The notes under the pieces: model-generated
Databases searched by the model: none
The model's input: the letters and a program-made list of their open reading frames with translations, nothing else
Told to the model about the DNA's origin: nothing
Shown here: one piece after another, positions 1 through 13,081 of the stretch
Layout: each line of letters opens with the position of its first letter
Numbering within the stretch: position 1 is the first letter of the stretch
Made by a program: the position numbers and the translations under genes
Source: a virus
Taxonomy: Duplodnaviria; Heunggongvirae; Uroviricota; Caudoviricetes
Length of the DNA stretch: 23,702 nucleotides
Virus record (IMG/VR): IMGVR_UViG_2645727555_000014
Reading direction: 5' to 3' (one strand)

Positions 1-705
1 TACAACACCATTGAGATGGCGTCGCTGGAATCCTGCATCCGTGAAGATCTCAACGAAAATGCCCCGCGCGCAATGGCGGTTATCGATCCGGTGAAACTGG
101 TTATCGAAAACTACCAGGGCGAAGGCGAAATGGTCACCATGCCGAACCATCCAAACAAACCGGAAATGGGTAGCCGTCAGGTGCCGTTTAGCGGTGAGAT
201 TTGGATCGACCGCGCCGATTTCCGCGAAGAAGCTAACAAGCAGTACAAACGTCTGGTGCTGGGTAAAGAAGTGCGTCTGCGTAATGCTTACGTCATTAAG
301 GCTGAACGCGTGGAGAAAGATGCCGAAGGCAATATCACCACCATCTTCTGTACCTACGATGCCGATACTTTAAGCAAAGATCCGGCAGATGGTCGTAAAG
401 TGAAAGGCGTTATCCACTGGGTAAGCGCGGCCCATGCGCTGCCGGTTGAAATTCGCCTGTACGACCGTCTGTTCAGTGTACCGAACCCAGGTGCTGCGGA
501 TGATTTCCTGTCGGTGATTAACCCGGAATCGCTGGTGATCAAACAGGGCTTTGCTGAACCGTCGCTGAAAGAAGCGGTAGCGGGTAAAGCATTCCAGTTT
601 GAGCGTGAAGGTTATTTCTGCCTCGACAGCCGCCATTCCACGGCGGAAAAACCGGTATTTAACCGCACCGTTGGGCTGCGTGATACCTGGGCGAAGTTAG
701 GTTAA
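1..705 (+). CDS. glnS: glutaminyl-tRNA synthetase, C-terminal part (5' end lies outside the window)
   Basis: Open frame from window position 1 with no start codon in window, stop TAA at 703-705. Translation (...[34 protein letters not shown]...[13 protein letters not shown]) matches my recollection of the C-terminal anticodon-binding region of enterobacterial GlnRS. Followed by an intrinsic terminator. Confidence 0.95.
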
Positions 706-728
706 TAGGTATTTCGCCACATAAAAAA

Positions 729-756
729 GTAAACGCCGCTACTGCGGCGTTTTTTA
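729..756 (+). terminator. rho-independent terminator of glnS; also sits at the 3' end of the convergent minus-strand operon
   Basis: Stem acgccgc (733-739), loop tact, stem gcggcgt (744-750), then T-run 751-755. The stop codon of the convergent methylase gene (754-756) lies inside the T-run. Confidence 0.75.
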
Positions 757-1659
757 CTTCATTATCGCAATTATATCGTTAGCAACTACACGTGTTGACG
801 CCTTGCAGGAAACCGACCGTCTGGCTGCCATATGATGTACTTTAAACCCGTTTCCTTCATATAGTTCACGGATGTTTGGCGCACCACTATTTGTTATCAC
901 TACCTTAGCGCCGCGCTGGTGGGCTTCCACCAATAGAGATACCAGCCGTTTCTGTTCGTCGAAACGGAAGCTATTTCCTGAATAACTGGTAAACCCTTCT
1001 GTATCCGGCAGCGGTTCATACGGCGGATCGCAAAAAATCACATCGCCTTCACCAGCCGCCTCGATGACGCCAGCAAAGTCACCTGATACAAAGGACGTGT
1101 TTTTGAGTACGTCATCAGCCAAAAATGCCTCCATCTCTGCATGTGGGAAGTAGGGCGCTTTGTATTTGCCATACCCCACGTTGAACTCGCCATTTTGGTT
1201 GTACCGCGTTACGCCATTAAAACAGTGCCGATTAAGGTACAAAAAGGCGGCAGCATGATGTAGCTGGTCATACTTTCCTCTGTTAAATGCCTCACGCACT
1301 TCGAGGTAAGCGTCAGCGTTGTTGTAATTTTGGAAAAAACTATATGACAGCGTGACGAGCGAATGTCCTTCTCGCTGCAATGTCTGATAGAAGTTAATCA
1401 GGTCACCGTTAATATCATTAAGCAGGTTGTGGTGAAATCCTGCATTTGTAAATACGGAACCGCCACCAACGAATGGTTCTATTAACCGCTTGCCGTGTGG
1501 TAGATGCTCAAGCACTGTAGGCAACTCTGAGAATTTACCGCCTACCCATTTGAAGATCGGGCGCTCATATTCATCCGGAGTCCGAATGGTGCGCATATAG
1601 CTAATTTCAGCCATCGTATCCTGTTTTTTTATGGCTATGCTTGCTATAGATTTACTCAT
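754..1659 (-). CDS. DNA adenine methyltransferase, Dam family (N6-adenine, DPPY motif)
   Basis: Translation contains FKWVGGK...EPFVGGGSVF...FLYLNR...GEFNV...FCDPPYEP, colinear with Dam as I recall it. Start chosen at ATG 1659 (strong AAGGGGG SD; overlaps the upstream gene stop); alternative start ATG 1614 with an AGGA SD. Confidence 0.85.
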   Translation of the reverse strand: MSKSIASIAIKKQDTMAEISYMRTIRTPDEYERPIFKWVGGKFSELPTVLEHLPHGKRLIEPFVGGGSVFTNAGFHHNLLNDINGDLINFYQTLQREGHSLVTLSYSFFQNYNNADAYLEVREAFNRGKYDQLHHAAAFLYLNRHCFNGVTRYNQNGEFNVGYGKYKAPYFPHAEMEAFLADDVLKNTSFVSGDFAGVIEAAGEGDVIFCDPPYEPLPDTEGFTSYSGNSFRFDEQKRLVSLLVEAHQRGAKVVITNSGAPNIRELYEGNGFKVHHMAARRSVSCKASTRVVANDIIAIMK

Positions 1660-2302
1660 AGAGCACCCCCTTATTCGCTTCGAAAACTGCCTTTGCGAAT
1701 CCATGCGGAGTAGCACTTCGAAAATTAGCCCTTTCAGGTCCAGGTGGCGCGGTATGGATTCTGTTATCTGGCTTGCCTAATGATTCGTCCATTAGGGCAT
1801 CAGGCATGACAAAGCCTTGCCCGCTCCAGAGGCATGTTTTTTTGGTGTAATTGTCTTCCTTGCAATATGCAGTGAAGTGGTAAGGATGGAAGATGTGATC
1901 AGGTTTACGCCAGAATGTCGATATTTGGCTGACCGGGTTTTCAATCATGTACGGGCAACCAATCATCTTTGCAATATCGTAACACTGCCAGACGACCTGC
2001 ATCGCTTTGAACTGGAAAAACGGATCTTTGTCAGCCTTATGCGCAAACCAGCGCGCACCGGAAACAGCAAGGTCCGTGCACGGCGGAAAACCAGCTAAAA
2101 ACACAATACGTTGTAAATTATTTCGGAGAAAAGCATAAACTTCATCACTATCGATAATCGCACTGATACGTGTCAGAACTGCGCCTGATTGCATCAGCTC
2201 ATCTCTGGTCTCTGCGTGTTGTGGATCGACGATAACAGCATCTATACCATGCTCCAGCCAGGGGGCGACCATTTTCCCCGTGAAATCACAAAGACTCACC
2301 AT
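1652..2302 (-). CDS. putative DNA (cytosine-5)-methyltransferase-like protein (atypical, short)
   Basis: Contains GFPPCTDLAVSG (resembles C5-MTase motif IV GFPCQ.FS) and YMIENPV (resembles the ENV motif). Motif I is degenerate. Start taken at internal ATG 2302 because the longer ORF (to 2431) would overlap rdgC by over 100 nt. Assignment is from motif recall only. Confidence 0.45.
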   Translation of the reverse strand: MVSLCDFTGKMVAPWLEHGIDAVIVDPQHAETRDELMQSGAVLTRISAIIDSDEVYAFLRNNLQRIVFLAGFPPCTDLAVSGARWFAHKADKDPFFQFKAMQVVWQCYDIAKMIGCPYMIENPVSQISTFWRKPDHIFHPYHFTAYCKEDNYTKKTCLWSGQGFVMPDALMDESLGKPDNRIHTAPPGPERANFRSATPHGFAKAVFEANKGVLYE

Positions 2303-2315
2303 CAGAGGTCTATTG

Positions 2316-3221
2316 TTAACGTTCTGCTTCACCACCAACGGCCTCCACCAGCGAAGTGAACATCGCGGATAATTCAGCAGTAAACAGGATAAAGTCAGCG
2401 TCAAATCGTTGCGCAACATCCTCTCGATCAATATCGTCGTTCTGGTCGTACAATTCGTCGCTGAACGACAAAGCCTTGATACTCATATCGTCATTCAGTC
2501 TGAAAAATGCACGGTCTTGCCAGTTAACCGCAACTGTGGTTGCAACCTTACCAGCTTCTATATGACTCATGATCTCGTCGGATAGCAGGTCCACTTTTTT
2601 GCAGCGGACCGCGCCGCCATCATCAAGCAATGCTTTTAAGGTCGCTTCCTCACCGGCACGGAAACCGTTCGGGAAGCCATTTTTAATCCAGCCAGTGATG
2701 GTCAGTTCTAATGGGTCTTTCGGAGAGAAGGGGACAACGGGCAAGCTGCCAAGCGATTTCCGTAACAAAGCCAGCTGATCCTCTGCTTTTTTAGCACTGC
2801 TGGCCTCGACAAAAACCAGATGATTGCTTCGGTCTATCAGGATTTTAGCGACTGATTTTCTCGTGAAAGCACGAGGAAGCAGAGAGTGAAGCACTTCATC
2901 CTTCAGCGAATCTTTTTCAGTCTTCTTCAGCTTTCTGTCTTGCTCTTCTTCAAGTGTCAGGATTTTTTTCTGTAACTCTTCTTTGAGCACTTGAGAGGGT
3001 AGGATTTTTTCCTCTCGTTTATGCTGTATCAGAAGAAAACCTTGGTATTCATGGGTGAGGTTGTCGCCAAGAACGGGGGTCCAACCAGCTTTAGCCATAT
3101 CCTGAGAACCGCATGGGGTAAACACAAACTTGCTAAGGGCTGCATTTACTTCTGCAGTATCCCAGCTAACTTCGCGTGAAAGACGATAGATGAAGATATT
3201 TTTGAAAGCGACTGATCTCAT
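2316..3221 (-). CDS. rdgC: recombination-associated protein RdgC homolog
   Basis: 301 aa. N-terminus [13 protein letters not shown]...[14 protein letters not shown] and later [67 protein letters not shown] match E. coli RdgC (303 aa) as I recall it, essentially colinear. Confidence 0.85.
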
Positions 3222-3227
3222 GTCTCA

Positions 3228-3271
3228 CCATTTGTGTTAGAAAATACATATTAATTATCTAACACAAATGG
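3228..3271. promoter_or_regulatory. perfect 13-bp inverted repeat (ccatttgtgttag / ctaacacaaatgg) carrying the TTTTCTAACACAAA box, immediately upstream of rdgC
   Basis: 3228-3240 is the exact reverse complement of 3259-3271, with an 18-nt AT-rich spacer. Lies between the stop of the spike-like gene and the rdgC start codon; no T-run follows on the minus strand. Confidence 0.4.
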
Positions 3272-3280
3272 GTGCATTTT

Positions 3281-3934
3281 CTATCCTTTCTTGAAATCGA
3301 AGTTGCTAGCAGTGGCCTGAAAGGTTCCTCCTGCCTTGAAAGCTATGTCTCCGTTAGCGGTGACAGCAATATTTTCCCCTTTAACATTGATGTTGTTGGC
3401 TGATTTGACGTTAACACTCCCTCCTGCATTCACGATTACATCAGCCGGACCAATGATATATATCTGCCCGGACTCATTCATGCCAATCCTTGAGCCTGCT
3501 GCCGTATTGGCAATTTCATAGCCGCCACCAGCAGTTCGTACTTCAAGAATATTGTTGCGGTGAATAACGAAGTCTTTCGTTGCTGAGATTTTGGGGCGGG
3601 GAGGTGCTCCATCTACTTCCGGCGGCGTCCAGCCGTTGCCTTTGCCAGATGCTTCTGGTGCAACGTTTGGAATTCCTCCCGGTGCATCCTGAGCGGCACC
3701 AACTATCATTGGGCGTCTGGTGTCTATTCGACCGTTAACATCTAAATAAGGAAACTCTACCCAGACCAGGTCACCTTTGACTGTGGGTACAAAAGCGTTT
3801 CCGATGGGTAACAGGTATTCCGCCCAGGGTAGATCGTCATCAGGAACGCCATTCCAGTCAGGTAAAACACGGACTTGAGCACGCATAAGCCCTGCCGGGT
3901 GCACAGTTCCAACAATTTGCGCTCTACGCTTCAT
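3281..3934 (-). CDS. phage protein with gp5/gpV-like N-terminal OB-fold (putative baseplate spike-like), C-terminal Gly/Asn/Val-rich repeat region
   Basis: N-terminus GTVHPAGLMRAQVRVLPDWNGVPDDDLPWAEYLLPIGN...KGDLVWVEFPYLDVNGRIDTRRPMIVGA resembles the OB-fold of phage baseplate spike proteins. C-terminus has repetitive NVKSANNINVKGENIAVTANGDIAFKAGG. ATG 3934 overlaps the upstream stop (ATGA). Confidence 0.45.
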   Translation of the reverse strand: MKRRAQIVGTVHPAGLMRAQVRVLPDWNGVPDDDLPWAEYLLPIGNAFVPTVKGDLVWVEFPYLDVNGRIDTRRPMIVGAAQDAPGGIPNVAPEASGKGNGWTPPEVDGAPPRPKISATKDFVIHRNNILEVRTAGGGYEIANTAAGSRIGMNESGQIYIIGPADVIVNAGGSVNVKSANNINVKGENIAVTANGDIAFKAGGTFQATASNFDFKKG

Positions 3935-6470: not shown

Positions 6471-6559
6471 AAGCATCCTCAAAGGTCGATCTGTCAGGTA
6501 TCGAAAGGAAGATTTTCTGGAGATTGTGATTTTGGATGAAGGAGGAGGAATTCATAAAA

Positions 6560-6587
6560 TGCACTTGCGCACAGTGCAACGGTGCGC
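6560..6587. promoter_or_regulatory. overlapping palindromes in the divergent promoter region upstream of higB (candidate HigA operator)
   Basis: TGCACT-tgcgcac-AGTGCA (6560-6578) and gcgcac/gtgcgc (6567-6572 / 6582-6587), located about 45-70 nt upstream of the higB start. Confidence 0.3.
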
Positions 6588-6632
6588 TATAGTTATGGCA
6601 TTCGGTAATCATCACGGAGGATCAAATGACTA

Positions 6633-6935
6633 ATGACCAAAAAAATTAACATAAAGGATTTCAGGGATGCGTGGCTTGATGATTTTTTTGAATTTTCAAC
6701 ACCACATAGAAAGATACCTCCTGATATTCATATGACATTGTCACGGAAGTTGGACATTATCAATGCCGCAACTACCTGTAAGGATTTAAGATCACCACCA
6801 GGTAATCGGTATGAGGAACTGTCAGGGAAGCTAAATGGCTATTCATCAGTAAGGGTGAATAAGCAATATAGGTTAATTTTTAAGTGGGTTAACGGAAAGG
6901 CCGAGGACTTGTATCTCGACCCTCACAAATACTAA
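6633..6935 (+). CDS. higB: type II toxin, HigB family (RelE/ParE superfamily, plasmid maintenance killer type)
   Basis: 100 aa, N-terminus MTKKINIKDFRDAWLDDFF and ...YRLIFKWVNGKAEDLYLDPHKY are typical of the HigB family. Followed by a HigA-type HTH antitoxin gene (toxin-first order typical of higBA). Confidence 0.8.
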   Translation: MTKKINIKDFRDAWLDDFFEFSTPHRKIPPDIHMTLSRKLDIINAATTCKDLRSPPGNRYEELSGKLNGYSSVRVNKQYRLIFKWVNGKAEDLYLDPHKY

Positions 6936-7005
6936 AACAGATACCCGGTTACGGACCGGGTTCTGACCAGAGTCCACTTAATACGCACGCTAGTAAGGGC
7001 AAAAA

Positions 7006-7344
7006 ATGAAACAGGCAACCAGAAAACCGACGACCGTAGGTGATATCCTGCTGTACGAATACCTGGAGCCGTTAGAGCTGAAGATCAACGAGTTGGCAGA
7101 AATACTTCATGTTCATCGTAACACCGTAAGTGCTCTTGTTAATAATAATCGTAAGCTAACGATGGATATGGCATATCGCCTGGCAAAAGCATTCGATACT
7201 TCTGTAGATTTTTGGATTAATCTTCAGACCGCAGTAGACCTGTGGGAAGTCGAAAATGATATGCGCGTTCAGGAAGAGTTAAGTCGTATCAATACTGCTG
7301 AAAAATTTATTTCTCAGCGGAACCTGAATAAAAAAGCAGCCTGA
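7006..7344 (+). CDS. higA: type II antitoxin HigA (XRE-type HTH)
   Basis: 112 aa; TVGDILLYEYLEPLELKINELAEILHVHRNTVSALVNNNRKLTMDMAYRLAKAFDTSVDFWINLQTAVDLW fits the HigA addiction-module antidote family pattern. AAGGG SD upstream. Confidence 0.85.
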   Translation: MKQATRKPTTVGDILLYEYLEPLELKINELAEILHVHRNTVSALVNNNRKLTMDMAYRLAKAFDTSVDFWINLQTAVDLWEVENDMRVQEELSRINTAEKFISQRNLNKKAA

Positions 7345-7365
7345 TATAGTAAAACACATACAAAA

Positions 7366-7394
7366 AGCCCACTTAGCAAGTGGGCTTTCCTTTG
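7366..7394 (+). terminator. hairpin after higA (terminator or attenuator)
   Basis: Stem agcccact (7366-7373), loop tagca, stem agtgggct (7379-7386), then ttcctttg. The next start codon (7401) follows directly. Confidence 0.5.
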
Positions 7395-7400
7395 TAATTA

Positions 7401-7760
7401 ATGAACATTAAACCTATCCGTACAGAACAAGATTATGAGGCCGCACTGCGTGCGGTCGAACCGATGTTCGATAACGAACCGGAAATGAATACTCCGGAAG
7501 GTGATTTCTTTGAGGTTATGAGTCTTCTCATTGAGGAGTACGAGAAAAAACATTACCCAATTGAGCCACCATCACCTATTGAGGCCATTAAATTCCGTAT
7601 GGAACAGCAAGGGCTGACCGTGAAGGATCTGGAACCGGCGATTGGTAAGTCAAATCGTGTTTACGAAGTGCTAAATGGGACACGAAATTTGACGTTACCT
7701 ATGATTCGCCGTTTACATTCCCAGCTTGGCATTCCTCTTGAAAGCTTGGTTGGTATTTGA
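7401..7760 (+). CDS. HTH DNA-binding protein resembling E. coli K-12 HigA (YgjM)-type antitoxins; no cognate toxin adjacent
   Basis: 119 aa. IRTEQDYEAALRAVEPMF and C-terminal GLTVKDLEPAIGKSNRVYEVLNGTRNLTLPMIRRLHSQLGIPLESL resemble the K-12 HigA (YgjM) HTH region as I recall it. No SD; an in-frame TAA sits just upstream at 7395-7397. Confidence 0.65.
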   Translation: MNIKPIRTEQDYEAALRAVEPMFDNEPEMNTPEGDFFEVMSLLIEEYEKKHYPIEPPSPIEAIKFRMEQQGLTVKDLEPAIGKSNRVYEVLNGTRNLTLPMIRRLHSQLGIPLESLVGI

Positions 7761-7822
7761 GTTTGGTGGTCTGGATGACCGCTATTTTCATAAAATAGAT
7801 ATTAGAAATCACGGTAGTTTAT

Positions 7823-8551
7823 ATGAATACAGATTCATCAACAGAAAAATTGACTGAAAATGATCTAATCAAAGTATCTTTTGGAGATGCCATAAAAGAC
7901 AAGCTTTTTAATAAAGTGTTTGCATATATATTAATTTCTTTTCTAATTATTAATTGGAAAGATATACTAATATTGATGAAGTCAAAGGATGATATCCTAT
8001 ATACTTTATCTGTAACATTTGTTGGAGGTAAGATTCCTCTAGTTTATGAAGGCGTTTTGTCTCCTTGGCTTTATCATTTTTGCTTGCCATTTATTTTTGG
8101 AATTATTGCATCAATTGCAGCTCCGATTGTCACTCTTTGCGTATCAAAGCTAACAAGTAAAATATATACAGAGATAAGGTATTTGGATGCCGACATGGAT
8201 CAAAATAAAAGAAAGGCGTTGCAAATAAAAGAGACTGAAATAATAAAAAGTATTAATGATACACAATTCAACAAAAGAATTATGGATGAAAATAAAAATG
8301 AACTTGAGAGATTGCTTAGGCAGCAAAAAGAGATTATGGCGGCAATAAAGTTATTATATGATGATGTTGGAGTTATCATTGAGCTTTTTAAAAGTAGAGG
8401 GGTTGGTATTGACTCCCCAGAAAAGTTATATGATTTTGTAATGGCAATAAAGAAGACTTCGCTTTATAATGGCGATCATGATTTTAATAAATTGGTTGCT
8501 GATATTTCAAATTTATTTGATAAAACGGAAATTGATTTTTCAAAAAGATGA
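7823..8551 (+). CDS. hypothetical membrane protein: two predicted TM helices followed by a long charged coiled-coil-like C-terminal region
   Basis: 242 aa; hydrophobic segments VFAYILISFLIINW and LYHFCLPFIFGIIASIAAPIVTLCV, then a K/E/D-rich region (...KRKALQIKETEIIKSINDTQFNKRIMDENKNELERLLRQQKEIMAAIKLL...). Gene is visibly AT-rich relative to flanks. No family recognised. Confidence 0.65.
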   Translation: MNTDSSTEKLTENDLIKVSFGDAIKDKLFNKVFAYILISFLIINWKDILILMKSKDDILYTLSVTFVGGKIPLVYEGVLSPWLYHFCLPFIFGIIASIAAPIVTLCVSKLTSKIYTEIRYLDADMDQNKRKALQIKETEIIKSINDTQFNKRIMDENKNELERLLRQQKEIMAAIKLLYDDVGVIIELFKSRGVGIDSPEKLYDFVMAIKKTSLYNGDHDFNKLVADISNLFDKTEIDFSKR

Positions 8552-8552
8552 A

Positions 8553-8575
8553 AGCCTAGCCTAGGCAGCTAGGCT
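8553..8575. terminator. hairpin between convergent genes (probable terminator for the minus-strand gene)
   Basis: 8-bp stem agcctagc / gctaggct with a 7-nt loop. On the minus strand it is followed by TTCATCTTTTTG. Confidence 0.45.
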
Positions 8576-8584
8576 ATGTGTGGT

Positions 8585-9778
8585 TTATGCTTTTTTTACA
8601 TACTCCATGAACATTTTTTCAGCTTGTGCTGGTGGTGTTCCAGCCATGACAAGCGCATCAATGAACGCCTGCTTCTTCAGTGCGAACTGATCGGCAAGGC
8701 GTTGCTGAAGCTCCTTGTTTTTCTGTTTCTCACGTTGCAAGGCCGCTTCTTTTGCTGCCGCCCGTCTTTTCTGTGCGTCTGACAACTTTCTGGCCTTGGT
8801 CAATTGGTCACGTAGTTTGTCGATCTTGCCGTTGTCCTTTGCCAGTTTTGTACTTAAAGCGGCCTGGCGCTTCTGATAGAGCCTCCATTCGCGCTTGGCA
8901 GCGTCAACGTTTGTTTTACTGTTGCGATTGCGATTAAACTCCCTCTCGTCTTCTTTTGAGAAGTGTTTGGTTGTACGGCGGCGATCGTCACCAAATGCAA
9001 TTTGCGTTGCGGCCTTTTGTAACGCACGAGCAATACTCATTTGCCAACTAGCGGACTGTAACCGCGTCATTGAGTGGATCACGTGTTTACAGGCGACGCC
9101 TTGTAGCTTAGGGTTACGAACTTTTGGATAGGCGTATTCTTTTGGCGGGGTCAGGGCAAAGTTACCCGCAGTAGCGATGTAACGATACCAGTATTGATGA
9201 CGACCACAGTCACAATCGAAAGACACCCGCCCGGCGCACAGTGATTTAGTGATTTTCAGAGCTGATTTATCGTCTTCTGCGATGTCATCGACCATCTGAT
9301 CCCATTCTTCAAAGCGTATCCGGACGATATGGTGCTGGTGGACGGATATATCCGATGCTTCTACGCGGATATTAATCACGTTGTGGCGAAGAGATACGGG
9401 TGTAGCTCTTTTGATACCAGATCCGTCATCCACGGCGTTATTTGCACGCTTAATATCGATTGCCTGGCTGGATGCCACCAGCTGGGCGTATGTGATGCCA
9501 GCCGTCTTGCTGTCATATTTTTCGCGTGTTTTACTCCGTAGCTTTTCGAAACCTTTCAGGTCGTCTCGCGTGAAGAACGTGCCGCCTTTTTTCTTCCCTA
9601 ACTTGAGAATATCTTCGGCGGATTTGTTCCTCAGTCTACCTGGCGTCAGCGTCCGGTGAGCTTGTCGGCGCTTACGGGTTTGTTCTTTCCTGATAAGGTC
9701 GAATAAACGCGTGAAGTCCTTAGAGGACAGGCCGTCAGTGATATAGCGCCCGTCCTGGTTTTTCAGGAAATCAGGCAT
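8585..9778 (-). CDS. hypothetical phage protein with SWIM-like zinc-finger signature and Lys/Arg-rich coiled-coil C-terminus
   Basis: 397 aa. FDCDCGRHQYWYRYI...VACKHVIHS gives a C-x-C-x(n)-C-x-H spacing. C-terminal ~100 aa strongly basic and heptad-like (KREWRLYQKRQAALSTKLAKDNGKIDKLRDQLTKARKLSDAQKRRAAAKEAALQREKQKNKELQQRL). Confidence 0.55.
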   Translation of the reverse strand: MPDFLKNQDGRYITDGLSSKDFTRLFDLIRKEQTRKRRQAHRTLTPGRLRNKSAEDILKLGKKKGGTFFTRDDLKGFEKLRSKTREKYDSKTAGITYAQLVASSQAIDIKRANNAVDDGSGIKRATPVSLRHNVINIRVEASDISVHQHHIVRIRFEEWDQMVDDIAEDDKSALKITKSLCAGRVSFDCDCGRHQYWYRYIATAGNFALTPPKEYAYPKVRNPKLQGVACKHVIHSMTRLQSASWQMSIARALQKAATQIAFGDDRRRTTKHFSKEDEREFNRNRNSKTNVDAAKREWRLYQKRQAALSTKLAKDNGKIDKLRDQLTKARKLSDAQKRRAAAKEAALQREKQKNKELQQRLADQFALKKQAFIDALVMAGTPPAQAEKMFMEYVKKA

Positions 9779-10428: not shown

Positions 10429-11082
10429 TCAAAGTATCACGGTATCTTCATCAACTTCTTTCCCAGCCAGTGACTTTGGCTGGGAGGTGCCTGCTTTAAC
10501 TTTTTCATGCCCAATAATGGACAGGAACGAAGCGAGTATGCCTGTTTTTTGTTCTTTCTCGACTGTACCGGTCATCTGCTCTACGTAATCCGCACTGGCA
10601 ACGTTGTGGTATACGGTCGCGTAGCAACACAGGATCATCAGAATATGCTCCGGCCTGATGTCCTGCCAGTTCACCCGGTAGACTTCTTCTCCGTTACCGT
10701 TGTATTCGGTGTCAACGATGGAGTCGGGGATTTCGAAAGCACCTTTGTTATTTTGCGGCAGGGATAATAGCTTCTGGAGTTTTAGCTCTCTGTATCTTTC
10801 CATCCCGACGATGATTGCTGCTCTGCCATCGGCATGACGGGTCTTGAGAGTCACCTGGCTTGCTCCGGTGCCAGCGGAGATCGTTGGCGTAATTTCGTCT
10901 ACTAGAACCTTAAATTTGCTTTTCCGCAGGGCTGCTATAGCTGGAGGAATTTTTTGCTTTTGCTCCAATGCTGACGCGGGAAGGGGTTTTACTTCGTTAA
11001 TAATGAGAGCACCGTCTTTCAGTATTGCAGTGAGCATTTGAGGCTTGCTGGTGGTCAGGCTGAATATTGCGATCTTTTCCAT
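10429..11082 (-). CDS. hypothetical phage protein (217 aa)
   Basis: Start set at ATG 11082 (MEKIAIFSL...) with GGAGG about 7 nt upstream, rather than the ORF-track start at 11124. No family recognised. Confidence 0.55.
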   Translation of the reverse strand: MEKIAIFSLTTSKPQMLTAILKDGALIINEVKPLPASALEQKQKIPPAIAALRKSKFKVLVDEITPTISAGTGASQVTLKTRHADGRAAIIVGMERYRELKLQKLLSLPQNNKGAFEIPDSIVDTEYNGNGEEVYRVNWQDIRPEHILMILCCYATVYHNVASADYVEQMTGTVEKEQKTGILASFLSIIGHEKVKAGTSQPKSLAGKEVDEDTVIL

Positions 11083-11427
11083 TGTCCTTCCTCCACGGAT
11101 GACGGATACAAAAAAAGGCCGCACATGGCGGCCTGCTTTGGCGTTATGACTCCCTACCGCGCTTCGGCTGAAAGTTAATCGTCAAAAGAACCTTCAACGG
11201 GAGCCGTTAGCGCGATGGATTATGTGCAGTTTGTGATTTCCAAAATAGTGTCAACCACTTTTTATGGATTTTATTTTTTGACCGAAATTTGGCCTAAATC
11301 ATGTTGATTTGGCTGATTATTTTTATAACATAAAAGTCATTTTGATTGCATGAAGGACGGTGCAGTGAAGTTAAGGGTTTTAGGGACCGCGCTCGCGGCT
11401 AAGATGGTAAAGTATGGAGTTAATGAA

Positions 11428-12261
11428 ATGTTTTTTATAAAAAATGGAAAAAGATGTTCCTCAACAATACTTGCTACTGTTGTTGCTCTCTCTGTTCCCA
11501 CATTTGCCTTTGCTTATGATTTTAGCAAAATTGACTGCAATGCCCCTAAAACCAGACAGATGTTAATCGATGATTATAATGAACTGCTGAAGGACGATCA
11601 GGAAGCAATCTCTGTAATTGATGCTTATAATCAGATCAATGAGATAAGAGAAAAAAATAAGCTCCAATGCCTGGGAACGTATGAATTCTCAGATGGAAGT
11701 GCGCTTAGGGTTAGATATAAGTTATATTTAAATAGCCTCGGCACACCCATATATGAATTTGCTCCAGTTGAGGAATTAACGCAAGATGATGTAAGCGCAT
11801 CTATTCATAATTCCCCTGCAACTCCTGCAAGCATGGCTGGACATGATAAAAAAAATAATGGTGAAACGTATGCCTGTAAGGTGGCTGTAACTTACAAGGG
11901 GGAGCGTTCTAACTATATGGGGGATTCCGGAACATGGGATCGTGTGATTACTGACTATGGCACTTATTTTTCATGGGATTTGCCACGCGGAAACCGAGGC
12001 AACAGCACAGGTCAGGATGCTTTTAGTGGCATGGACGAATCAAAGCCTGTATTAGAAAATCAGCTAGTGAGAAAGGAAACTGAAAAAGATGGTAGCGTGG
12101 TTGATGAATTTAGGACTGATGTAAGTTATGGGGAAAAACAACCAGTTCATAAGTTTGTATATGCTCGTAGAATAAAACCTACAGGCATGAGAGAGTATTA
12201 TGTTACGGATTTAACAGACAAGCGGGCGTTTATGTTTCTGAATTGTCAGAGAGATTCGTGA
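11428..12261 (+). CDS. exported hypothetical protein (signal peptide, four Cys), AT-rich moron
   Basis: Start set at ATG 11428 (GGAG upstream) giving MFFIKNGKRCSSTILATVVALSVPTFAFA-YDF: a classic n/h/c signal peptide with AFA cleavage motif. Mature protein has 4 Cys. Gene and upstream region visibly AT-rich. Confidence 0.65.
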   Translation: MFFIKNGKRCSSTILATVVALSVPTFAFAYDFSKIDCNAPKTRQMLIDDYNELLKDDQEAISVIDAYNQINEIREKNKLQCLGTYEFSDGSALRVRYKLYLNSLGTPIYEFAPVEELTQDDVSASIHNSPATPASMAGHDKKNNGETYACKVAVTYKGERSNYMGDSGTWDRVITDYGTYFSWDLPRGNRGNSTGQDAFSGMDESKPVLENQLVRKETEKDGSVVDEFRTDVSYGEKQPVHKFVYARRIKPTGMREYYVTDLTDKRAFMFLNCQRDS

Positions 12262-12268
12262 TTGACAT

Positions 12269-12297
12269 AGCAGGCTTACTATTAAGCCTGCTTTTTG
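12269..12297. terminator. bidirectional rho-independent terminator between convergent genes
   Basis: 10-bp perfect stem agcaggctta / taagcctgct with loop ctat, followed by a T-run (12293-12296). Confidence 0.8.
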
Positions 12298-12300
12298 GCT

Positions 12301-12660
12301 TTACTCGGTAATAGTTTTGCAGTTGTTTTGATTTAATGACAATCCTAGCTTGCTAGCAGCCAACTCATTTTCTGTGTGAGAACCAGCAAAAATGAAGCCT
12401 TGTTTTATCTTATTTACGGTGAAATATTTATTATACATGAACGCCCAGATAAATGAGGCAATCCACGGGCCAATTCCGGCTGTGAGGAATGCCAGTATCA
12501 GCATCACTACAAATACCCCAATAAAAGTTATAAAGTCTTTCCTGAACAAAGCTGGAAAAGCACCAAACAAGAATGTAGTCCAGGAAAAACCATAAAAACC
12601 GGTGATTGATTCGCCAGTTTGAGGGTTTTCAAGTTTAATTTTAGTAGCCACGATTACCAT
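12301..12660 (-). CDS. small inner-membrane protein (two to three predicted TM helices)
   Basis: 119 aa; hydrophobic segments FSWTTFLFGAFPALF, FIGVFVVMLILAFLTAGIGPWIASFIWAFMY. Start may be ATG 12660 or the GTG three codons downstream. Family not identified with certainty. Confidence 0.55.
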   Translation of the reverse strand: MVIVATKIKLENPQTGESITGFYGFSWTTFLFGAFPALFRKDFITFIGVFVVMLILAFLTAGIGPWIASFIWAFMYNKYFTVNKIKQGFIFAGSHTENELAASKLGLSLNQNNCKTITE

Positions 12661-12796
12661 CCTTTTACATAAAAAACATAGAGTTATAGTGCTGTGTGAG
12701 ATTCTAATGTTACTAATTTACACTTTGTAATGCAATTAAATAACTTTAGGCAGTGGAAGTAACTATTCGTGGCAGACTATCGTTAAGATCTTTCAA

Positions 12797-13081
12797 TTAT
12801 GGTTGCTGTAAGTGGAGGGGAACAGCCTGTTCTATCATCTCGCGTATCAAGCCAACTTCAAGTAGTTCCTCGTATTCCCAGTATCTGTTTGTCACCAGAT
12901 CCAGGCTGGCTATGACCTTGTGCCGGTCATTCGGCATAGCCAATTTTTCTGCTATAACCATCAGTGAAAACTCTTCATCCAGTAGAATTTGATAGCAGTT
13001 TTTTGATAGTTCCACTTCCCTTATGAGACTGAAACGTCGCTGGATTGTGGCAGCAGAGTAAGTGAAATCTATTTTCTTCAT
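12797..13081 (-). CDS. hypothetical protein (94 aa)
   Basis: ORF-track M corresponds to a TTG codon at 13081 with no clear SD; first in-frame ATG is ~40 codons in. Real start uncertain. Confidence 0.35.
   Translation of the reverse strand: MKKIDFTYSAATIQRRFSLIREVELSKNCYQILLDEEFSLMVIAEKLAMPNDRHKVIASLDLVTNRYWEYEELLEVGLIREMIEQAVPLHLQQP

Follow-up and report, generated by a model that had tools for sequence, protein, structure and literature searches.

Organization of the locus

The window (the whole 23,702-nucleotide stretch of viral DNA that was analysed) carries three closely packed, overlapping genes on the minus strand: an rdgC/hrdC homolog (2316-3221; 301 aa), a mini C5-cytosine DNA methyltransferase-like gene of the 'phage Dcm' family (1652-2332; 226 aa when read from GTG 2332), referred to below as mini-Dcm, and a Dam-family N6-adenine DNA methyltransferase gene (754-1659; 301 aa from ATG 1659). 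An earlier note, made from the sequence alone, had named an RdgC homolog, a C5-MTase-like protein and a Dam-family enzyme as tightly coupled genes at the end of an operon. All three identities and the coupling hold, as does the operon end: a bidirectional intrinsic terminator (731-752, both strands), a GC-rich hairpin (9-bp stem, six of the pairs GC) that has T-runs on either strand, parts Dam from the convergent glnS, a phage-borne glutaminyl-tRNA synthetase gene.

The element is a D6-like, P1-related phage-plasmid (prophage) of E. coli. The whole window is 96% identical to phage D6 across 86% of its length, and the nucleotide identity over 700-3300 is 91%. The corresponding D6 genes orf65-orf64-orf63 (GenBank MF356679) share the element type, gene order, overlaps and terminator of the window, and are annotated in GenBank as RdgC family (orf65, also described as 'similar to P1 hrdC'), putative DNA-cytosine methylase (orf64) and site-specific DNA-adenine methylase (orf63). 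The trio is already known from this annotation, and the observation is real but ordinary. The window differs from D6 in a divergent allele over a patch of ~1 kb (1840-2860; 84-88% identity, against ~99% in the flanks) that takes in two-thirds of rdgC, at its 3' end, and two-thirds of mini-Dcm, at its 5' end. The trio is present in 65 complete E. coli genomes, on plasmids of ~90 kb, and the order RdgC, mini-Dcm, Dam recurs on an 85-kb phage-plasmid contig that is more distantly related.

The rdgC gene and its upstream region

The first gene encodes a member of the RdgC family, as established by Pfam (PF04381, E 4.8e-102, 341.7 bits, covering 6-298 of 301 residues) and NCBIfam (NF001462, 387 bits, cutoff 330), together with PHROG 724. 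Compared with D6 orf65, its dN/dS is 0.08. The 59-nt gap 5' of rdgC holds a palindrome with 18-nt arms (3228-3271), possibly an operator or an mRNA hairpin, which overlaps a weak promoter-like site (3283..3254) and has an RNA fold of -21.5 kcal/mol (z -5.3). The palindrome is 100% identical in D6, although the body of rdgC is only 84.5% identical, and there is no second copy of it in the window. This conserved element may mark a promoter or operator of its own for rdgC, or an attenuator.

The Dam gene

The last gene of the trio belongs to the Dam family (D12 class N6-adenine MTases). It is matched by PF02086 (E 2e-56, 192 bits, cutoff 22; Pfam) and TIGR00571 (249.5 bits, cutoff 114.85; NCBIfam), and both the catalytic motif D-P-P-Y (1018-1029, minus strand) and the F-x-G-x-G motif FVGGGS (1456-1473, minus strand) can be read from the sequence. 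The protein scores below the cutoff of the E. coli Dam equivalog model (241 versus 441), and it is therefore a family member and not the host ortholog. The overlap of its start codon with the preceding stop codon, pointed out in the earlier note, amounts to 8 nt (ATGAGTAA, 1652-1659, minus strand) and is consistent with translational coupling to mini-Dcm. A GGGGG Shine-Dalgarno sequence lies 5' of the Dam start, and the 8-nt overlap is identical in D6.

Gene model of mini-Dcm

The reading frame of the middle gene was previously given as 217 aa, which is probably 10 codons too short; its context in the sequence favours a start at GTG 2332 over ATG 2302. A GGAGG Shine-Dalgarno sequence inside the rdgC end (2342-2346, minus strand) is positioned 9 nt before GTG 2332 and 6 nt before GTG 2335, an in-frame alternative start. 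The other alternative, ATG 2302, would give 216 aa, and the same codon is Val in D6. All mini-Dcm homologs have 5-10 residues ahead of the first strand, and the gene calls for the D6 homolog and for a 98%-identical cluster (P0001) are both 226 aa long. A start at GTG 2332 gives mini-Dcm a 17-nt overlap with the rdgC stop.

Family and fold of mini-Dcm

In domain searches with the mini-Dcm ORF, the sole match was PHROG 757 'DNA methyltransferase' (E 6.3e-79). No curated C5-MTase family profile matched: neither PF00145 nor NCBIfam gave a hit with thresholds as loose as E<=10 or E<=1. A search of PDB sequences was likewise empty, also when a profile was used. The family is nevertheless very large: it is represented in 1,572 phage records and forms at least 6,918 clusters when grouped at 90% identity, or at least 2,550 at 50%. 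In the nin regions of lambdoid prophages and in T1-like phages, its members have no Dam gene beside them. Elsewhere mini-Dcm and Dam are joined in one fusion protein (P0121), and another homolog carries an intein directly ahead of the catalytic Cys.

The fold of mini-Dcm is that of a C5-MTase catalytic domain. Foldseek matches against the PDB are weak (E ~1e-3, TM ~0.4), as is the hhalign match of the family to DNMT3A (E 2.6e-4, probability 42%), in which motifs I, IV and VI are aligned. The catalytic domain of DNMT3A/DNMT3B counts among the closest known systems. DNA enzymes lead the structural matches, ahead of the RNA MTases in the list (FtsJ, Spb1). This order bears on whether the mini enzyme might methylate RNA, such as tRNA, and not DNA. 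Dnmt2 is a precedent for a C5-DNA-MTase fold able to act on tRNA, the convergent neighbour is a tRNA synthetase gene and the region resembling a target-recognition domain (TRD) is small. Besides the structural ranking, the genomic company of the family (Dam, RdgC, nin region) is DNA-related and a homolog from phage K42 modified msDNA (see below), and we consider an RNA substrate very improbable.

Catalytic motifs and conservation

The GFPPC and ENP motifs described in the earlier note are present in mini-Dcm, and with them the Pro-Cys nucleophile of C5-MTase motif IV and the Glu of motif VI. Motif IV (G-F-P-P-C, 2078-2092, minus strand) contains the catalytic Cys85, and Cys is found at this position in 137/137 diverse members of the family. 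Motif VI (E-N-P-V, 1931-1942, minus strand) contains Glu131; E131 and P133 are likewise kept in 137/137. The motif I-like sequence L-C-D-F-T-G (residues 14-19; 2276-2293, minus strand) follows the family consensus (F/C/Y)-D-x-(T/S)-G, and of the 137 members, 111 retain D16 and 110 retain G19. The equivalent sequence is F-D-G-S-G in T1-like members, F-D-G-I-A-T-G in DNMT3A and C-D-F-T-G in the window. Because the window sequence is without the first Gly of FxGxG, SAM binding by mini-Dcm is something that we infer.

Motif X diverges from the pattern G-N-(A/S)-V. The motif X-like sequence of the window is F-R-S-A-T-P (1706-1723, minus strand), in which Arg205, present in 127/137 members, replaces the Asn of most bacterial C5-MTases; the two residues were equated from the sequence pattern and not from a superposition of structures. 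An Arg motif X is also found in DNMT3A (G-R-S-W-S-V-P) and in SpCmoX (G-R-M-V-P-P).

The suggestion that the protein has no obvious TRD stands in part. Only ~55 residues separate motifs VIII and X (from W-R-K-P-D to F-R-S-A-T-P), but this stretch is conserved across the family and not variable, with Y162, K164, T166, W169, F174 and P177 among its conserved residues. Two other suggestions do not survive the comparison. Motif I had been called degenerate, yet C-D-x-T-G is how motif I normally reads in the mini-Dcm family, and is close to its form in DNMT3A. The enzyme had been thought possibly inactive, whereas the comparison with D6 reveals strong purifying selection (dN/dS 0.08 over ~82 substitutions). 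On both grounds, family conservation of the motif and dN/dS, we dropped the idea that a degenerate motif I marks an inactive enzyme. Conservation at the sequence level argues that mini-Dcm is probably active and not degenerate.

A related proposal sees in the short ORF a remnant that has lost catalysis, or else a non-enzymatic partner that assists the adjacent Dam or binds DNA in the manner of DNMT3L, which supports DNMT3A. Its 226-aa length, atypical motif I and lack of a Pfam match would fit this proposal, as would its overlap with the Dam gene and its fusion to Dam elsewhere. The invariant catalytic Cys and Glu and the low dN/dS speak against it, as do the occurrence of the family without Dam and the dependence of the effect of the K42 homolog on catalytic residues. 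A dead or purely accessory protein is thus highly unlikely, and an active mini-Dcm is retained as the preferred reading.

Comparison with the Dcm of phage K42

The K42/KarlJaspers-type Dcm of Drexlerviridae belongs to the same protein family. The window ORF shares 37% identity (E 1e-44) with a Warwickvirus homolog, which carries C82, E128, K175 and K176, precisely the residues mutated in phage K42 Dcm; they correspond to C85, E131, K164 and K165 in the window. The K42-type enzyme is similar in size (236 aa, compared with 226 aa), but differs in having a canonical motif I (F-D-G-S-G versus C-D-F-T-G) and in residing in a virulent siphovirus, unpaired with RdgC or Dam. In a preprint, K42 Dcm increased 5mC on msDNA as measured by LC-MS/MS, while the quadruple mutant did not; 5mC alone was monitored, and CCWGG specificity was assumed, not mapped. 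The K42-type Dcm is a trigger of retron Ec86/Eco1, and in dcm+ MG1655 the retron was triggered by the phage enzyme and not by the host Dcm. Experimental support for 5mC formation by the window enzyme is by proxy, through this 37%-identical homolog, and suggests by analogy that it may do the same.

The near-invariant Arg205 raises a different possibility, namely that the mini enzyme is a CmoX-like, carboxy-SAM (Cx-SAM)-dependent cytosine C5-carboxymethyltransferase that draws Cx-SAM from the host E. coli CmoA and installs 5-carboxymethylcytosine instead of or besides 5mC. CmoX candidates have been defined by an S-P-P-C motif and by an Arg (R350) that replaces Asn304 of HhaI and binds the carboxylate. 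The window has F-P-P-C, with Phe and not Ser, and Arg205 at the motif X position; the motif IV regions are comparable (G-S-P-P-C-S-A-F-S-V-A-G in SpCmoX, G-F-P-P-C-T-D-L-A-V-S-G in the window), and the K42 study, in which 5mC alone was monitored, leaves room for such a product. However, the SAM enzyme M.HaeIII has G-P-P-C-Q and DNMT3A, also a SAM enzyme, has the Arg, and the equation of PPC plus Arg with Cx-SAM use was downgraded for this reason. The K42 homolog did increase 5mC. The genomic association also differs: 4,257 CmoA are encoded on the contigs of 5,615 candidate CmoX, usually together with an amide ligase, whereas the window, D6 and the other neighbourhoods examined (loci L005-L009) contain neither cmoA nor an amide-ligase gene. 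SpCmoX itself (Synechococcus phage S-B43; PDB 8yf3) is a 372-aa protein with a full TRD, is encoded beside cmoA and an amide ligase, and uses Cx-SAM only. On balance, we regard a CmoX-like activity of the window enzyme as improbable. The broader version, in which the entire phage mini-Dcm family, including the D6-like gene and the Ec86-triggering enzyme of Drexlerviridae, accepts host carboxy-SAM and writes 5-carboxymethylcytosine with or without 5mC, seems just as doubtful; if true, it would explain why Ec86 fires on the phage enzyme but not on the host Dcm.

Comparison with the P1 hrdC-dmt module

The gene order of the window matches that of P1, where the functions encoded after hrdC are first C5-type, then Dam-type. 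With this order, the overlaps and a predicted single transcription unit, the trio has the organization of a P1-type hrdC-dmt module. P1 Dmt combines PF00145 and PF02086 domains in one 754-aa fusion with a canonical PF00145 C5 domain, whereas the window has two genes. The C-terminal half of P1 Dmt (residues 465-753), inter-domain linker included, shares 67% identity with the window Dam. In contrast, no similarity between mini-Dcm and the N-terminal half was detected by BLASTP or hhalign. The idea that D6 carries a simple split of P1 dmt consequently survives for the Dam part only; for the C5 part it was rejected. At the sequence level the Dam part is an ortholog, and the C5 part is a non-orthologous replacement of the P1 C5 domain. 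By analogy with P1 Dmt, the window Dam is probably GATC-specific.

The surroundings of the two modules differ. The P1 uhr-hrdC-dmt operon is repressor-controlled, under the C1 operator Op68, is dispensable for plaque formation and was non-essential in a CRISPRi screen, as expected of an accessory module. The window module has no uhr gene and directly follows baseplate genes, whereas that of P1 lies behind the C1-controlled Pdmt; no match to the P1 C1 operator consensus was found within the window.

Proposed model and significance

Taken together, the locus is probably an accessory 'hrdC-dmt'-type module of a D6-like phage-plasmid that encodes RdgC, an active mini C5-MTase and Dam. The gene identities, fold, motif conservation, purifying selection and synteny are direct observations, and the model predicts SAM as cofactor, DNA as substrate and GATC as the Dam target. 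The three genes would be translated from a single minus-strand mRNA that ends at the terminator, with translation of Dam coupled to that of mini-Dcm through the 8-nt overlap. By homology, the RdgC-family protein would be a ring-shaped dsDNA binder that restrains RecA. In mini-Dcm, Cys85 of F-P-P-C would attack cytosine C6 and Glu131 of E-N-P would protonate N3, with the methyl group coming from SAM. The two orphan methylases may then jointly place m5C and m6A marks on the DNA of phage and plasmid, in a split counterpart of the bifunctional Dmt of P1 in which the PF00145 module would have been swapped for a phage mini-Dcm member. P1 Dam also serves pac cleavage. The biological role of the module may be restriction protection, as the earlier note suggested, and/or, by analogy with P1 Dam, control of packaging and replication.

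The direct significance is small, as the trio is already annotated in D6 and mirrors P1 hrdC-dmt. The wider interest lies in a very large phage/prophage family of mini C5-methyltransferases. It has no Pfam or NCBIfam model and its members are still labelled 'hypothetical protein' in RefSeq; orphan cytosine methylases are therefore under-counted in phage and plasmid annotation. Since mini-Dcm family members and phage Dam enzymes have both been reported as triggers of retron defence, D6-like plasmids carry two potential triggers.

Gene organization

ORF listing, translation and profile searches bore out three minus-strand genes: an RdgC homolog (2316-3221; PF04381, E = 4.8e-102; NF001462, 387 bits against a cutoff of 330), a short C5-methyltransferase-like gene ending at 1652 (mini-Dcm) and a Dam-type gene from ATG 1659 to 754 (PF02086, E = 2e-56; TIGR00571, 249.5 bits against a cutoff of 114.85) with DPPY (1018-1029) and FVGGGS motifs. 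The GFPPC and ENP motifs reported for the middle ORF in the earlier note are present (GFPPC, ENPV and LCDFTG), and the Dam start does overlap the preceding stop (ATGAGTAA, 1652-1659). The trio was also placed at an operon end, in line with a hairpin found after the Dam gene at 731-752, which has a perfect 9-bp GC-rich stem and a T-run on each strand and is the predicted terminator shared by this unit and the convergent glnS. The window at 16-705 (plus strand) is the 3' part of this phage-plasmid-borne glutaminyl-tRNA synthetase gene (orf62 of phage D6), with matches to chromosomal glnS in 5,425 of 5,426 E. coli genomes. Because best-match identity is mostly 95-99%, the phage copy looks to have been captured recently from the host's housekeeping gene.

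The evidence does not favour the 217-aa mini-Dcm model starting at ATG 2302, which is probably an internal codon. A GGAGG sequence (2342-2346) lies upstream of two in-frame GTG codons (2335 and 2332), codon 2302 is Val in D6, all homologs have 5-10 residues ahead of the first β-strand, and 226 aa is the called length in D6 and in cluster P0001, which is 98% identical to the window protein. With a GTG start there is a 17-nt overlap between the mini-Dcm and the rdgC end, which would make the whole trio translationally coupled.

A palindrome with 18-nt arms (3228-3271) lies in the intergenic region 3222-3280, which separates rdgC from the baseplate gene. The RNA form has a folding energy of -21.5 kcal/mol (z -5.3), with the 3' arm extending to the Shine-Dalgarno sequence of rdgC. 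A weak promoter-like site (TAGAAA-18-GATAAT) overlaps the palindrome, which is 100% identical in D6, against ~85% for the rdgC body. An intrinsic terminator was ruled out because there is no T-run; the palindrome could be an operator or a translational or processing hairpin.

Identity and activity of the mini-Dcm

A domain search, proposed earlier for the 217-aa protein, matched PHROG 757 'DNA methyltransferase' (E = 6.3e-79) but gave nothing in Pfam, NCBIfam or PDB sequences, profile query included. The family comprises at least 6,918 clusters at 90% identity and 2,550 representatives at 50% identity (E ≤ 1e-3), and occurs in 1,572 phage records that include T1-like Drexlerviridae, Klebsiella siphoviruses and rV5-like, Vibrio, Campylobacter and Flavobacterium phages. 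All of the 137 diverse members compared have C85, E131 and P133, and >90% keep D36, G92, K99, K164, T166, W169, R205, P209 and G211. The family profile aligns with DNMT3A at motifs I, IV and VI (E = 2.6e-4), and Foldseek matches among viral models are phage proteins named DNA-cytosine methylase.

In structural comparisons the short protein scored 12.3 with both CmoX (PDB 8yf3) and DNMT3B, 11.8 with the prophage methyltransferase 3g7u, 10.8 with DNMT3A, 9.9 with DNMT1 and 9.6 with M.HhaI, the best generic Rossmann protein (SDR) scoring 9.9. The tied best match is thus SpCmoX, a carboxy-SAM (Cx-SAM)-dependent C5-carboxymethyltransferase, and the signature described by its authors, S-P-P-C plus Arg in place of HhaI Asn304, resembles F-P-P-C and Arg205 in a matching motif-X pattern here. 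That the mini-Dcm likewise uses Cx-SAM is nevertheless improbable. Neither feature is diagnostic singly, because SAM enzymes show them: M.HaeIII has G-P-P-C-Q with G-N-A-V-P, and DNMT3A has G-S-P-C-N with G-R-S-W-S-V-P. A phage K42 homolog makes 5mC, and no cmoA or ligase gene lies nearby in the window, D6 or the homolog neighbourhoods examined.

An active, SAM-dependent C5-cytosine methyltransferase of DNA is the most likely identity of the short protein. The suggestion that it may be inactive, with a degenerate motif I, is not supported: its CDFTG-type motif is of the kind usual among members, (F/C/Y)-D-x-(T/S)-G, to which F-D-G-I-A-T-G of DNMT3A is close. A dN/dS of 0.08 despite 12-15% nucleotide difference from D6 indicates strong purifying selection on rdgC and mini-Dcm genes. 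For the Drexlerviridae phage K42, a preprint reports that the 711-bp dcm triggers retron Ec86, that its expression raised msDNA 5mC by LC-MS/MS and that a C82A/E128A/K175A/K176A mutant was inert; a CCWGG site was assumed, not mapped (bioRxiv 10.1101/2023.08.16.553469). By sequence, K42 Dcm is a mini-Dcm, because all four mutated residues, C82, E128, K175 and K176, stand at exactly those positions in the Warwickvirus G3B1 homolog, which matches the window ORF (37% identity, E = 1e-44). Between motifs VIII and X lie ~55 residues that are unusually conserved across the family, suggesting that members have much of their DNA-contact surface in common.

In P0219, a 548-aa family protein from the representative search, a Hint and LAGLIDADG intein separates F-P-P from the catalytic Cys (…GFPP/CFTGDTLV…IVHN/CTNLSVSG…), and the methyltransferase nucleophile also serves as the intein +1 residue. 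Inteins usually occupy functionally critical positions.

Comparison with P1 and linkage of the methylases

In P1, uhr-hrdC-dmt lies behind the C1-controlled promoter Pdmt, and the 754-aa Dmt joins a C5 domain of the canonical PF00145 type to a Dam domain (PF02086). The Dam of the window shares 67% identity with residues 465-753 of Dmt, a span that includes the linker, whereas the short ORF has no similarity to the N-terminal half of Dmt by BLASTP or hhalign, so the RdgC, C5-type, Dam-type layout is common to both, but a non-orthologous C5 module has taken the place of the P1 one. When P1 was screened by CRISPRi, uhr, hrdC and dmt each proved non-essential, in keeping with an accessory module.

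The RdgC, mini-Dcm, Dam order is found again in an 85-kb contig of a more distant phage-plasmid, where an 87-aa uhr-like gene precedes the trio, as in P1. In P0121 (563 aa; 218-1909 of metagenomic contig L014) a single polypeptide holds both enzymes, residues 2-253 being a mini-Dcm and 303-546 a Dam domain, an arrangement analogous to Dmt but with a mini-type C5 module; the fusion was seen solely on this 2-kb contig and may be an assembly artefact. Linkage is not obligatory, because the mini-Dcm stands alone in Cronobacter lambdoid prophages and in T1-like phages, in the latter among small early genes. The Cronobacter homologs (L007-L009, 5001-5690; ~59% identity) lie between ninB and ninE/ninF, a position that orphan methylases occupy in other lambdoid phages.

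Protection from restriction is a plausible role for the trio methylases. P1 Dam methylation licenses pac cleavage and affects oriR. Phage Dam is also reported as a retron trigger. K42 Dcm fires Ec86 in E. coli MG1655, in a study where 5mC alone was measured, with sites unmapped (bioRxiv 10.1101/2023.08.16.553469). MG1655 has its own CCWGG-specific Dcm and yet shows no self-activation, so the K42 enzyme must differ from the host one in site, kinetics or product. As phage Dcm and Dam are both reported triggers, methylase genes may carry a cost. The BASEL authors describe Drexlerviridae methyltransferase genes as without a simple link to restriction resistance.

Distribution and novelty

At the locus, identity to Escherichia phage D6 (a plasmid prophage related to P1) is 91%, and for the whole window it is 96% across 86% of its length. 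Against D6, a mosaic patch at ~1840-2860, which takes in the last two-thirds of rdgC and the first two-thirds of the mini-Dcm gene, shows 84-88% identity and dS 0.57-0.78, compared with ~99% and 0.006-0.04 for the flanking dam and baseplate genes; it looks like allelic replacement by recombination within the operon. Low-GC islands (34-41% against ~48% elsewhere) lie on the plus strand at 6500-8600 and 11000-13000, their D6 counterparts being RelE/HigA toxin-antitoxin genes with orf73 and a simB-like gene, respectively.

The trio occurs in 65 of 5,426 complete E. coli genomes, on ~90 kb plasmids, with the middle gene labelled 'hypothetical protein' in RefSeq. The best E. coli match (RefSeq plasmid NZ_CP031917.1, 99%) has pseudogene flags, frameshifted or partial, on all four of glnS, dam, mini-Dcm and rdgC; they are intact in other plasmids, and the flags are probably assembly errors, not biology. 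GenBank describes D6 orf65 as 'RdgC family, similar to P1 hrdC', orf64 as 'putative DNA-cytosine methylase' and orf63 as 'site-specific DNA-adenine methylase, similar to C-terminal half of P1 dmt'. The D6 annotation therefore already covers the trio, which is a variant P1 hrdC-dmt module; the residual value of the finding rests with the mini-Dcm family, which is un-modelled and poorly characterised.
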